Origin: Peribolospora baueri
Taxonomy: Eukaryota
Length of the DNA: 64,000 bases
Direction: 5' to 3'
NCBI GenBank assembly: GCA_029717555.1
Contig: JAMDHS010000046.1
Coordinates: 1-64,000 of the forward strand
Of the stretch, positions 6,213 to 11,884 are shown piece by piece (position 1 is the stretch's first letter; each line of letters begins with the position of its first letter). The translations under genes and the position numbers were made by a program. The notes under the pieces are model-generated. The model saw nothing but the letters and a program-made list of their open reading frames with translations, did no database searches and had not been told where the DNA came from.

Positions 6213-6670
6213 TGTAACAAGGTTCGAGGTTATAGCAATGGGGAGCGAGGCGCTGTTGTCATTCTTCATCCGAGCAGGGGGGAGAGGGGCTGTATATATA
6301 CACTGGACAACCCTACTGCGGTAGTCCGTGACAGCGACGCCCACCTCATGCGTACCGTGACACGAGATCACGACGAGAGCGAGAGCTAGACGAGGGGAGC
6401 CAAGACGAGGGCAAAGGCGAGGACACGGGACGAGGCAAGAGTCAAGAGCAAGGACGGGATACGAGATGGGGATGAGGGTTTGCTAATGAGATATCCGATG
6501 AGGGACCACTTCCTACCCAAGACTGAGAGCCTTAATACGCGGAGGGGATCCCCACAAGACCGGGGAAAACCATACCAGAGTGCGGGGCTATGGGGGGAAG
6601 TGTTGAGGCAGACGGAGAAACCATAACCCGAGCGAGGAGGGTGCCGACCTCGGGCACGAGCGCCGTGACA
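6213..6670 (-). mobile_element. Putative 5' LTR (or nested LTR fragments) of the Ty3 relic
   Basis: On the minus strand, TGTCACGG starts at 6670, 6362 and 6333 and GTTACA ends at 6213 (TG...CA inverted termini). TATATATA lies near 6293-6300. The segment is directly upstream of gag; the true boundary is uncertain. Confidence 0.45.
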
Positions 6671-7595
6671 GAAACGGGTCTTCAACTGGGAAGGAAGATA
6701 AAGCAGCGAGAAGAAACGGTCTTCCAACAGGGAGGCAGGATAAAGCAGCAAGAAGAAATGGTCTTCAACAATGGCATGCCACGTAGCAAAATGGAAAGGC
6801 GTGGACGGAGGATAAGTGCGGGAAGATTAGCAAGATGAAAAACAAGGACAAAGGGTCTGCAACGGGGAGAGAATATAAAGCAGCGAGAAAAAACGGGTTT
6901 TCAACAAGAAAGCGTTGAACAGGGAGGGAGGATAAAATGGCAGGAAGATGAATAAGAAGGAGAAAAGGGTCTGCAACGGGGAGAGAAGATAAAGCAGCTG
7001 GCAAAAACGGGTTCTCAACAAGAAAGAAACGGCTTTTGAACTGGGTGGGAGGATAAAACGGCAAGAAGAAACGCTTTTCCACAACGTCGTGGCACGTGTC
7101 GAAATGGAAAGACATGGAGGGAGATTAGCGAGATGAAAAACAAGGAGAAAAAGGTCTGCATCGGGGAGGGAAGATAAAGCAGCAAGAAAAAACATGAAAG
7201 AAACAGATCGTCGAAGGGAGGGAGAAAAAACGACGGCAAGAAACGGTTTTGAGCAGTGTCGCGCCACGTGGCAAAATGGAAAAGCGTGGGCGGAGAATCA
7301 GCGGTGGAAGATGAAAAATAAGGAGAAAAGGGTCTTCAACAAGAGAAAAACGGTCTTGAACGAGGAAGGAAGATAAAGCAGCAAGAAAAAAAAGAAAGAA
7401 ACAGGTCGAAGGGAGGGAGGAAAAAACGGCGGCAAGAAGCGGTTTTCAGCAGTGTCGTGCCACGTGGGAAATTGGAAAGGCGTGGGCGGAGAATCAGCGG
7501 GAGAAGATGAAAAAACAAGGAGAAAGGGTGTTCAACAAGAGAAAAACGGTCTTCAACGGGGAGGGAAGATAAAGCAGCAAGAAAAACAGGGAACA
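6671..7595. repeat. Purine-rich degenerate tandem array (satellite-like)
   Basis: Recurring GATAAAGCAGC (about 8 variants), AAAACGG..TTCAAC, GGAGAAAAGGGTC and GCCACGTG..AA.TGGAAA.GCGTGG blocks. The last occurs near 6778, 7091, 7263 and 7459. Confidence 0.9.
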
Positions 7596-7603
7596 AGAAC
7601 GAA

Positions 7604-7709
7604 TACTGGCGGAGGAGGGTGGAATGTTGCACTGGCGAGGGAGGCGGGAAGTGGAATATTGTGCTGGCGGGAGAGGCGGGAAGCGGAAATTGCACTGGCG
7701 GGAGGTGGG
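7604..7709. repeat. Short tandem repeat, ~30-bp unit x3-4
   Basis: Variants of ACTGGCGGGAGAGGCGGGAAG(T/C)GGAAT(A)TTG repeated head to tail. Confidence 0.75.
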
Positions 7710-8634: not shown

Positions 8635-10253
8635 CTAAGCCCGCGCGTCCTCTTCTTCAGAAGTGTCCAACTGTACGCCTCTGCCGCCTCTATGCCGAAT
8701 TCTCGAGACCACACCATCCCAAAGCTGTCTCGTCCCTTTAGCAACGACTGTGAAGAAGCCACTGTGTTTTGGGAGGATGCGATCTGGCCGGATTCGGTGC
8801 TGTTGATGTGGGTTTTTTGGTGCAGACGAGGAGACGGGCGACGCACAAGTCAGTTGGACTCGCTTACTTACCTGCAAACGCCAGCTTTTACGCGTGCCTC
8901 GGATCGGCCGTCTCGCGAACCGAGCCCACCCACCTTGTCGTCGACCAACACTCGCAGACTGGCCAGGATGCTGAGCAAGACGGAGAGGGCAGTCGAGGCT
9001 GAGAGAATGAACATGATGATCGTCTGCAGCTTCGTCGCTTGGTCTACGGGCGTGCCGGAGAGGAGGGCACCGGTCTTTTGTTGGGGTGAGGGGAGTAGGA
9101 CGACCAACGAAGATGGAGAGCGTGCGAACGGTCAGAGCGCAAGCTTTGCTTGGAAGACGAGGAGACGAGCGTCCTCGAAATCTGTTCAGCTGTGAGGCGA
9201 CATGCTCTCTAACGCACCATCATGCCTGGGATGGAGATGAGACCAATGATGCTACGGCGCGAGACACGAACGGGGTGAGAAGACGGTGGAAAATATGGAC
9301 GAAAGGACAGGCTCAGCTGTCGTTTCCACCGAAGTGTCTATGACCATTCTCTTTCCTCGCCCATTTTCGATGTCATCCGACGTCGTTCAACCTCGCTCAC
9401 CTCATCTGATTGATGATCGGCAGCAGCGCGATCCTCAACGCGTCGATGGCTACGGGCCTGCTCGCTTCGAGGCGCGTCGCGCCATGGGCGAGGAGCGTCT
9501 CGATCTTGTCCTTGTTCTCGCTGCGTGAGAGGGACGAGGACGGGCGCGACGAGCGACCCAGAAACGACTTGAAAGATGAATCCGAGCGCGAGAGCGAATG
9601 CATCCCGGGACTTGTTTCGACCGAAGAGCGGCTTCGGGCAGACGTCCACTCTGGCCGGCGCACTCACCTAAACTGAGTGAGCGTGTACCCGACGCCAACG
9701 CCGATGCCGCCGATGGCGTTGCCAAGGATCATGCCGAGCGTGGGCACGTATCGCATCGGCTCCCAGAAGGGTCTTTGCGACAATGCGAAATGGGAGCCGA
9801 CGGCGGAGATGGGCAGGGTGGTGATGAGCATGGAGAAGAGTGTGGTGAAGAACTGGCATAGATGTGGGGAGGGTGGACGAAGGAGAGAGAAGACGTCAGC
9901 GACGGACTGAGGCAAAAAAATAGACTCGACAGATTCACCATGCCCTTGTGCCTCCTCTTGCTCTTGCTGAAGACGACCTCCCACGCCCCGAGCAAGTTGA
10001 GGAGGACGGAGACGGCGGCGACGGCGAAAATGTTCCTGCTCTCGAAGACGCTCTTGAGCACGAAGCCCATGAGCCAGAGCTGGACGACGCATCGGAGTGC
10101 GGCGATGAGCAAGCTGCGCTCGATGCGGAGGCCGAGGGCGAGGGAGAGGAGTGCGTCGACGAGGACGAAGCCGAAGCCGAAGAGCACGTTCCAGTAGGTG
10201 AGCGTGACGGCGGGCACGTCTGGCGGGCCTGGTGACGCCGAGGGGCTGTCCAT
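8635..10253 (-). CDS. UPF0014-family membrane protein (FetB/YbbM/STAR2-ALS3-like ABC permease subunit)
   Basis: Six exons: MDSP...LLIAALRCVVQLWLMGFVL; ...RYVPTLGMILGNAI; ENKDKIETLLAHGATRLEA...ALRIALLPIINQM; SIIGLISIPGMM; TGALLSGTPVDQATKLQTIIMF...DDK; HRIRPDRI...EDARA*. The GMILGN, GAT and G-I-S-IPGMMTG motifs are UPF0014 hallmarks. Confidence 0.9.
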
Positions 10254-10608
10254 GTTGCTCCAGCCGTTGCTGGCGGGCGTGGAGGAAGGCGTGGAGGTGG
10301 TAGTGGGAGGCAAGAGGCAAGCAAGGACAGAGGTCGCTCGACGATGGCTTCTTGTGCTCGGCTCGGCATCTCTTCTTTCTATCTCCATCCACCTCGCCCA
10401 CGTGCCGGACCATCCATGTCCATGTTCGGCAGGGACGACGACGGCGGCGATAACAAACAGTCGCGATAATTTGATATTCCTTCTCCCTCCTCCAACCCCC
10501 TCGTCGTCGCCATCCTCCACAACGCCCGCTTGCCGGTCGCCGCCACCTCGATCCTCATCTCCCCGCCCCCCGCCGACTACGCCAGACGAACACCCGGAAG
10601 CGAGGACC

Positions 10609-11884
10609 ATGTCGCCGCCCGCCTTCTTCGTCGCCGAGCACATCACCAAGCTCCAAGAGGACGGGAGGCCTCTTTTCGAGGACGTCTCCTTCCAGCTCGA
10701 GCGAGGCGAAGCGGTTGTCATTAGCGGAAGGAGTGGATCTGGGTGAGTGGCGTGGTCGACCGTGTCCCGAGTTTACGTCGTCCCCGTAATGAGGCTCTCC
10801 CGTGATCTCTGCCTTGTTCGTCGCCGTCGCGCTGTGCAGAGCTCACCACTTCCTTTTTCTCTTCCCCTGGGGACAACGGCGACCACGACGACCGCGACGA
10901 GCAGGAAGACGACGCTGCTCAAGTGTCTCTCTGAGCTCACTCCTTACGACGCCGGCGGCTCTCACTTCTGTGGGCTGTGAGTCGTACTCTGTCCAACCAG
11001 TCCGGTCCTTCGGTGTGCTCACCGCCCGCTTCTCGTCTTCGCCTCTCCCTTCACATGAACCTACTCGCGGCCGACGGTCGGACTACTAAAGCTCACCGTC
11101 AGACCTGACGCCGCCCGTCTATCGGACGCACGTCCTCTACGTCCCACAACGACCCGCCCTCCTTCCAGGCACGCCACTCGACTTCTGGAACCGGATCACC
11201 TCCTTCAACGCCTGGCAATCCGACAAGGCCTCTGCAGCGACGGAAGCGACGGCTCATCTTCCAACTCGTGCACCCGCCAACGGGAGTGTGCCGGCAGTGT
11301 CGGGCGATGAGGACGAGTCCCGTTGGCCTCCCATCGAGGCCGACCCCATTCAGATAGCCAAGGGTTGGGATCTGCCGGAGGAGGCTTGGAACAGAGAATG
11401 GATGCAGCTGAGCGGTGGAGAGGCGCAGAGGGCCGGCCTGGCCATCTCCGTCGCCCTCATTGGCGGTAAAAGAAAGGGGAATGGCGTGTTGCTTCTCGAC
11501 GGTGAGCCTCGCCGCGCACTCATATCTCTTCCTATCCACCTCCGTCATGACCCCATCCACGCTCACGCATTCCCCTCTATCTTTGCAGAACCCACTTCCG
11601 CTCTCGACCCATCGACCGTACACCTGGTCGAAAAGACACTCCTAGGCACGGCGGCGGCGCCGACGGCCGCGCTCGTCGACGCCAGCACCGAACCCGAATC
11701 TGGCTCAGCGCGGCCGATCAAAAAGAAGGCCGGCGGCGGCGCTGGCCCTCTTACGCTTGTGTGGATCACCCATTCGGACGAGCAGGCCGAACGGATCAAG
11801 GCCAGTCCAGGCGGAGGCAAGCTCGTTTACCTCGGCGGCCAGCAACAGCGGAAAGGAGGACCGTCGTCGTCGTCGTCGGACTGA
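10609..11884 (+). CDS. Stand-alone ABC ATP-binding subunit (FetA/YbbL/STAR1-like)
   Basis: Walker A GRSGSG|KTT (split by an intron), Q-loop YVPQ, signature LSGGEAQR, Walker B LLLD|EPTSALD and H-loop WITHS. No transmembrane domain. Confidence 0.9.

Follow-up and report, generated by a model that had tools for sequence, protein, structure and literature searches.

A bacterial system is among the closest known counterparts of the transporter considered here. In E. coli, FetA/FetB (YbbL/YbbM; b0490/b0491), a putative iron ABC exporter, pairs a UPF0014 permease with a short stand-alone ATPase, and both subunits are encoded in a co-directional, overlapping operon. Salmonella ybbL and ybbM mutants are reported to be peroxide-sensitive, in a study that also cites a role of the E. 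coli system in iron balance (PMC5719062), and fetA and fetB have been described as acting jointly, with a benefit under nickel (PMC6338753). A eukaryotic ABC transporter that is likewise split, with the ATPase and the membrane part on separate subunits, is known from plants, namely STAR1/STAR2 in rice and AtSTAR1 (ABCI17)/ALS3 in Arabidopsis; ALS3 has been described as a ybbM homologue (PMC6168647). A review presents ALS3/STAR1 as a tonoplast complex of undefined specificity that is tied to aluminium and iron, and derives the plant genes from soil bacteria, by transfer into streptophytes (PMC11528361), which would make a fungal system a separate acquisition. The cargo of the family is disputed, with iron discussed for E. 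coli and UDP-glucose or metals for plants.

In fungi, one half of such a system has been catalogued before. The ABCI3 group of ATPases was listed in 2015 as a group of unknown function, and its entry carries no membrane partner (Kovalchuk et al. 2015, PMC4692070). According to a table in that survey, Rhizopus and Rhizophagus have ABCI3, as do 20 of 21 Agaricomycetes, and it is recorded for neither Ustilago nor any of the 13 ascomycetes; S. cerevisiae lacks it as well. The same source gives an induction in mycorrhizal tissue for three of the seven fungi tabulated (3.6-, 2.0- and 1.7-fold), which ties ABCI3 only loosely to plant-fungus nutrient exchange. An account from 2010, in its treatment of bacterial-type fungal ATPases and the YDR061W branch, names no membrane partner and calls such systems questionable (PMC2848647), and the main text of PMC9408558 does not mention UPF0014, FetB, YbbM or ALS3. 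Our literature search, which left most subscription journals outside its scope, found neither a link between ABCI3 and UPF0014 nor a study of the pair in fungi, and for UPF0014 it returned three papers, all of them plant studies. An earlier note on this DNA had known of no functional characterisation of the complex in fungi. Within the scope of the search we agree, adding that the ATPase itself already figures as ABCI3.

Here, we describe a locus of Peribolospora baueri at which a UPF0014 permease gene and an ABCI3-type ATPase gene lie head-to-head. This assigns a probable membrane partner to the orphan fungal ATPase, and much of the fungal kingdom would possess a two-part bacterial-type ABC transporter. 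We regard it as rather probable that the two genes specify a FetAB-type split transporter with a metal-type cargo, and that the system goes back to one early uptake of an operon, followed by rearrangement to head-to-head and by later separation. The pair is a fungal representative of an already known kind of transporter and not a new system.

Results and discussion

Gene models and genomic setting

Within the window, that is, the whole 64-kb stretch of DNA that was analysed, the UPF0014/FetB-type permease gene occupies positions 8635..10253 on the minus strand. It is predicted to consist of six exons (10253-9939, 9852-9668, 9520-9401, 9251-9218, 9074-8934 and 8799-8635) encoding 319 aa plus stop, interrupted by five GT-AG introns of 86-149 bp. 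An alternative last intron with a donor at 8871 was ruled out, because the conserved HRIRPDRI segment would be lost. Four of the exons were scanned singly, and each exceeded the cut-off of Pfam UPF0014 (PF03649), with the order of the profile kept. A word-based search with exon 1 returned no matches; homologues were obtained by a HMMER search. The deduced protein shares 54% identity with the Naematelia orthologue, 38% with the bacterial permease of locus L101 and 26% with E. coli FetB. Exon 3 (9401..9520, minus strand) carries a conserved E-x-x-L-A-x-G-A-x-R-x-E-A segment that is likely to form the ATPase-coupling helix, a role which we presume from its likeness to the EAA-type motif. A scan of 33 permease homologues, all longer or of full length, showed no ABC ATPase domain fused to the permease within the searched lengths; the split architecture claimed earlier was borne out in the proteins seen.

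The stand-alone ABC ATPase gene (10609..11884, plus strand) is predicted to encode 303 aa plus stop in four exons (10609-10742, 10905-10976, 11092-11501 and 11589-11884), and its three introns (162, 115 and 87 bp) are again all GT-AG. The catalytic motifs are complete and comprise Walker A, Q-loop, an LSGGE signature, Walker B with the catalytic Glu, D-loop and H-loop. Both gene models are based on splice signals and homology only, and judged on these both genes are intact. The earlier description of the pair proved accurate, with a permease start codon at 10253 (minus), an ATPase start codon at 10609 (plus), 355 bp in between and intron-rich genes on both sides (five and three introns).

Because the two families have a bacterial character, an origin of the locus by contamination with bacterial DNA or by recent transfer had to be weighed. 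The eight spliceosomal introns speak against it, two of them lying at sites common to other fungi: the Walker B intron site of the window ATPase recurs in 18 of 25 fungal loci and the Walker A intron site in 10 of 25, which supports long vertical inheritance. A scan of 92 reading frames revealed eukaryotic housekeeping genes in the neighbourhood (Hrq1, RNR small chain, Rictor, thiolase, DUF3074, Xrn, Sda1, a DEAD-box helicase and an EXS protein), and such ordinary eukaryotic neighbours identify the host as a fungus. In the trees, moreover, the window pair falls within the fungi, with Agaricomycotina as its neighbours (100/99); it adjoins the sampled Agaricomycetes and Tremellomycetes but stays outside them. 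Introns, neighbours and tree position together refute contamination or recent transfer, the probability of which is practically negligible.

Family assignment and bacterial relatives

The fungal genes fall into the two families of E. coli FetA/FetB (profile matches with E 2e-38 and 4e-30). The window ATPase shows 32% identity to E. coli FetA (E 8e-20) versus 24% to PstB (E 4e-8). With exon 3 of the ATPase as query, 44 proteins were returned, every named one fungal, and 27 of them went into a profile. When E. coli was searched with this fungal profile, FetA ranked first among 126 candidates with a narrow lead over PstB (121.7 vs 115.7 bits), and the FetB-adjacent ATPase was the top match in six of seven bacterial genomes (E. 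coli, Kolteria and four of five others). The exception was genome G004, in which a different ATPase scored above the FetB-adjacent one. The NCBIfam FetA model ranked first or second for all four fungal ATPases. A phylogeny with FetAB had been proposed as a check; in trees that use PstB and YbbA to represent the outgroup, the window ATPase falls among the fungal sequences, inside the clade of FetB-partnered ATPases. The published Rhizophagus ABCI3 sequence carries the signature motifs of the family, as compared by eye with the consensus and not by alignment, and the published range of ABCI3 fits our matches. By its sequence, the window ATPase belongs to the FetA type and to the fungal ABCI3 group. 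Profile ranks, NCBIfam models and trees agree on the assignment to the FetA/FetB family, as the earlier note had it.

Membership of the family does not extend to the narrower models. Against the FetA equivalog NF007601, fungal orthologues, which were scored in place of the spliced window proteins, reached 97-113 of 292 bits; against the FetB equivalog TIGR00245, fungal orthologues, again in place of the spliced window proteins, reached 95-125 of 410 bits. These scores lie far below the curated cut-offs and mark the proteins as members of the wider family and not as certified iron exporters. The fungal pair descends from another bacterial subfamily than E. coli FetAB, with which it shares 26-32% identity. 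Given these scores and the large distance to E. coli FetAB in the tree, iron export is not simply transferable.

Permease and ATPase genes go together almost without fail in bacteria. Among 42 loci fetched by permease alignment, an ATPase gene lies immediately upstream on the same strand in 40; of the two exceptions, one is a eukaryotic contig placed in the wrong bin and one a fragment. Conversely, the permease follows downstream of the ATPase in 29 of the 29 top loci of one phylum sample (that of genomes G002 and G003) and in 10 of 12 loci from the Planctomycetota, Pseudomonadota and Bacteroidota samples. The former phylum is labelled Myxococcota here after G003, which is ranked as Myxococcota; G002, labelled Enterobacterales, draws the same phylum sample.

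Both genes point to the same bacterial source. The trees of either gene alone, which agree with the concatenated tree but are less well supported, unite the eukaryotic sequences in one clade (SH-aLRT 94 and 90 for the ATPase, the latter from a quick tree, and 100 for the permease), with the same bacterial neighbour group for both genes. Concatenation gave the same picture with 47 pairs and, after 11 long or redundant rows had been dropped, in a bootstrapped tree of 36 pairs: the eight eukaryotic pairs form one clade (100/99), which is joined by a Myxococcota-rich group (99/99). The nearest sampled relatives of both genes are FetAB-type operons of the Myxococcota phylum (L048, L064, L100-L110), and the sister group also contains one locus from Planctomycetota (L130). 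These operons share the ATPase motifs of the fungal type, which E. coli FetA lacks; in contrast to the fungal genes they are co-directional and free of introns. We know of no function for them. Of the 201 genomes in the Myxococcota sample, 10 gave profile scores above 200 bits, versus none of 201 Planctomycetota, 301 Pseudomonadota and 201 Bacteroidota genomes, with 9-14 candidates scored per genome. The position of the fungal pairs as one clade inside a mostly Myxococcota FetAB subfamily suggests one ancient operon capture, and a single capture from a myxobacterial-type source is likely. The identity of the donor is provisional, since bacterial sampling covered four phyla, the tree was rooted on E. 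coli and Bacteroidota, and near look-alikes of the ATPase in the Atlas fall in cyanobacterial and Thermodesulfobacteriota clusters. The uptake would have been a single event, no later than in the ancestor that fungi share with Fonticula; the operon would then have gained introns and been inherited vertically.

These results bear on whether the two proteins work together at all. Surveys, in the parts concerned with ABC-I proteins, treat the fungal members as soluble and give them no membrane partner (PMC2848647, PMC4692070), and the two genes are unlinked in most fungi, as would suit an ATPase that acts alone as a soluble ABC protein next to a permease with a separate task. Against this stand the near-obligate pairing in bacteria, the common bacterial sister group of both genes, two cases of head-to-head arrangement, and the intact coupling and catalytic motifs. 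We therefore consider independent action highly improbable. The gene pairing argues instead that permease and ATPase very probably bind each other. The permease would then be the membrane subunit and the ATPase the ATP-hydrolysing subunit, probably with two copies each.

Head-to-head arrangement and linkage across fungi

The region between the two start codons (10254..10608; 355 bp ATG-to-ATG) is a candidate shared promoter. Four other head-to-head pairs occur in the 64-kb window, their start codons (placed by eye) lying 219, 270, at most 487 and 603 bp apart, so that short head-to-head gaps are routine here and the geometry alone is no proof of a shared promoter. What goes beyond chance is that the adjacent genes are two halves of one transporter family. 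The motif CACGTG, which we take to be a Pho4-type box, is present in the window gap and in the gap of a second head-to-head pair from a metagenome contig (L031, see below). As a pair-specific signal it was rejected, for it also occurs in two of the four control gaps and, in a set of 20 other fungal ATPase genes, upstream of just one, with 1.5 expected. GATAA was counted 23 times upstream of 20 fungal ATPase genes versus 15.3 expected (p 0.027, a weak signal from one of five motifs tried, on which we base nothing). The consensus of iron-type GATA sites is ATCWGATA; upstream of the fungal ATPase genes it was found in 0 of 20.

The earlier note had proposed a survey of conserved divergent linkage, and this linkage turned out not to be general in fungi. 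In none of 11 named species were the ATPase and permease genes linked, the genes being located on different contigs or far apart, a count that compares the permeases located and leaves room for a second paralogue beside the ATPase. The species were three Kwoniella, Abortiporus (possibly compared across two assemblies), Trametopsis, Agrocybe, Umbelopsis nana, Kickxella, Coemansia sp. Benny D115, Dipsacomyces and Mortierella alpina; for Abortiporus, Trametopsis, Agrocybe and Umbelopsis nana the separation was read from the locus tags or the lengths of the contigs. A motif scan of metagenome contigs yielded 46 loci, all with a fungal-type ATPase, which fell into 25 clusters, 20 of them informative (at least 700 bp upstream); the same scan of viral contigs gave no loci. 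Among the 20 informative clusters, which are mostly Agaricomycotina, HMM and tblastn searches detected a permease in the flanks of L031 only. By best match, the remaining clusters resemble Agaricomycetes or Tremellomycetes, which makes the metagenome sample narrow.

L031 is arranged as in the window, with 245 bp between the start codons and only half of the permease present. As it represents the deepest-branching eukaryotic pair in the concatenated tree (96/92), the head-to-head arrangement may be ancestral. In a further case, a eukaryotic contig in a bacterial bin (L073), the permease gene instead lies head-to-head with an Sm D2-like gene, as judged by eye. One independent recurrence in about 31 lineages compares with about 0.003 expected by chance, an estimate that assumes 8,000-10,000 genes per genome, and it reflects either shared ancestry or repeated selection.

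It had also been proposed that a bidirectional promoter takes the place of the bacterial operon. The part of this idea that stood is the arrangement itself, which recurs once in a distant eukaryote; the substitution did not, because most sampled fungi lack divergent linkage and run the system unlinked, so that a bidirectional promoter is not a needed replacement for the operon. One may go further and regard the two proteins as true partners whose genes came to lie head-to-head by a late or neutral rearrangement, of the kind found in compact genomes, with no co-regulation. The four further head-to-head pairs of unrelated genes, the CACGTG motif in two of their gaps and the missing linkage in nearly all fungi sampled are consistent with this. 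Bacterial operons, moreover, are co-directional, hence the head-to-head order is not a plain relic of them. Yet the recurrence in L031 needs shared ancestry or selection, and we judge a neutral origin unlikely. That the 355-bp gap acts as a shared promoter balancing the two subunits in Peribolospora baueri appears fairly probable to us. The captured operon would have been rearranged to a head-to-head unit, and the genes would have separated later in most sampled lineages.

Candidate cargo and permease fold

For the working of the complex we propose that two permeases and two ATPases would assemble via the conserved coupling segment of permease exon 3, and that ATP binding would close the ATPase dimer and thereby drive the membrane domains. 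Solely by analogy with the bacterial and plant systems, ATP hydrolysis may remove iron, another metal or a metal chelate from the cytosol, either out of the cell or into the vacuole, and so lower peroxide damage, a proposal to which we give an even chance. The permease alignment contains several near-invariant methionines; our guess is that these would fit a soft-metal path.

A real complex could also serve a non-metal cargo such as UDP-glucose, another small metabolite or a lipid, or could be an ATP-driven membrane mechanotransducer. The rice STAR1/STAR2 system is reported to move UDP-glucose (efflux) (PMC6168647), and the iron-type GATA site is missing upstream of the 20 fungal ATPase genes. 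The predicted fold of the permease may add to this. A first, shallow model (pLDDT 67.6) was superseded by a model of the Abortiporus orthologue with a pLDDT of 91.6. Its best fold matches are the membrane cores of RND, NPC1, Dispatched and SecDF proteins, several of which handle lipids (Z 8.6-11.2 in the top 24 rows, rmsd 3.5-4 A over about 165 residues), although values of Z below about 13 may reflect a mere common arrangement of helical bundles and a shared fold shows no function. MacB/LolE-type ABC membrane domains scored Z 5.7-5.9 against the model. A Foldseek search with the model gave no match with E <0.001, and a search of PDB sequences with the permease profile gave none either; among solved structures we found no member of the family. 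An RND-like fold, if real, would hold for the whole family, with fungi no exception. Since the bacterial phenotypes indicate peroxide, iron and nickel (PMC5719062, PMC6338753), a non-metal role is possible but doubtful, and we retain a metal-type cargo as the preferred reading.

A more far-reaching synthesis can be formulated, in which ABCI3 and UPF0014 constitute, in fungi, a genuine ABC transporter of bacterial type with several subunits that stems from a myxobacterial operon acquired before the split of fungi and Fonticula and apart from plant STAR1/STAR2, with an early head-to-head unit that survives in Peribolospora baueri and L031 and a permease fold that RND/NPC1 cores resemble more closely than does any ABC membrane domain of solved structure. 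With all of its parts taken together, this picture is tentative and would more probably fail in some element than hold throughout.

Occurrence in fungi and relatives

The ATPase was found in Agaricomycetes, Tremellomycetes, Mucoromycota and Zoopagomycota. Among the best 120 of 445 matches, the permease occurs in these same groups and in Glomeromycotina and Basidiobolus, and further in Saitoella, a chytrid, a blastoclad, Neoconidiobolus and Fonticula alba. In Fonticula alba the permease is present and the ATPase was not found. The fungal pair offers a tractable system for the disputed cargo, as the genes could be deleted in non-pathogenic basidiomycetes or Mucorales, and S. cerevisiae, being devoid of ABCI3, provides a clean background for expressing both fungal proteins. 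Some fungi possess two permease paralogues (among the best 120 of 445 matches), and some automatic annotations of fungal UPF0014 proteins among the matches listed already read ABC transporter permease.

Results and discussion

A second head-to-head arrangement of the ATPase and permease genes, with a gap of 245 bp, was found on a distant eukaryotic metagenome contig (L031:1-1857). L031 formed the deepest eukaryotic branch in the concatenated tree of pairs, and the intron sites of its ATPase gene differed from those of the window ATPase. The start of an Apn2-like exonuclease gene was read by eye downstream on L031. Between the window genes are located a CACGTG box (window:10399-10404) and two GATAA motifs (window:10449-10469); the L031 gap, too, contains CACGTGCC. 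Specificity of these CACGTG and GATAA motifs was not borne out by controls comprising other window gaps and the upstream regions of other fungal ATPase genes. Within the 64-kb window, four further housekeeping gene pairs were arranged head-to-head with short gaps, namely RNR small chain/Rictor (window:25251-25855), UPF0029/thiolase (window:34923-35194), Xrn and a gene that we take to be MTP18-like (window:43789-44277), and Sda1/DEAD-box helicase (window:52956-53176).

As judged from the structure model of the Abortiporus permease orthologue (P0255, model mce4235ebcc6a), the UPF0014 membrane core appears to resemble RND/NPC1/SecDF repeats more closely than solved ABC membrane domains, a likeness that may provide a lead for the entire FetB/STAR2 family.

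Among the best 120 of 445 permease matches listed, Cytidiella melzeri (P0221/P0253) and Chiua virens (P0254/P0307) each possessed two paralogues on equally long contigs. In a further homologue, P0146, one complete permease domain and half of another are found in a single protein. We read the paralogue pairs and P0146 as tandem permease duplication in some fungi.

On L073:1-1424, a contig assigned to a Saprospiraceae bin, a UPF0014 gene with introns and an Sm D2-like gene are arranged head-to-head (read by eye); the contig is eukaryotic and was probably mis-binned. The genome G002 measures 9.2 Mb, and the G+C content of its FetAB-type operon locus (L064) is 70%. The phylum sample obtained for G002 is identical to that for a record ranked as Myxococcota; the Enterobacterales title of G002 is probably wrong.

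Elsewhere in the window, positions 6650-7620 displayed a strong purine skew, and their translations revealed repeated units of about 25-130 bp. Pfam gave no match in the two frames examined, and the region has the appearance of a degenerate repeat. A gene of the EXS family, a family linked to phosphate export, is located at window:56338-58370, some 45 kb away from the permease/ATPase pair.
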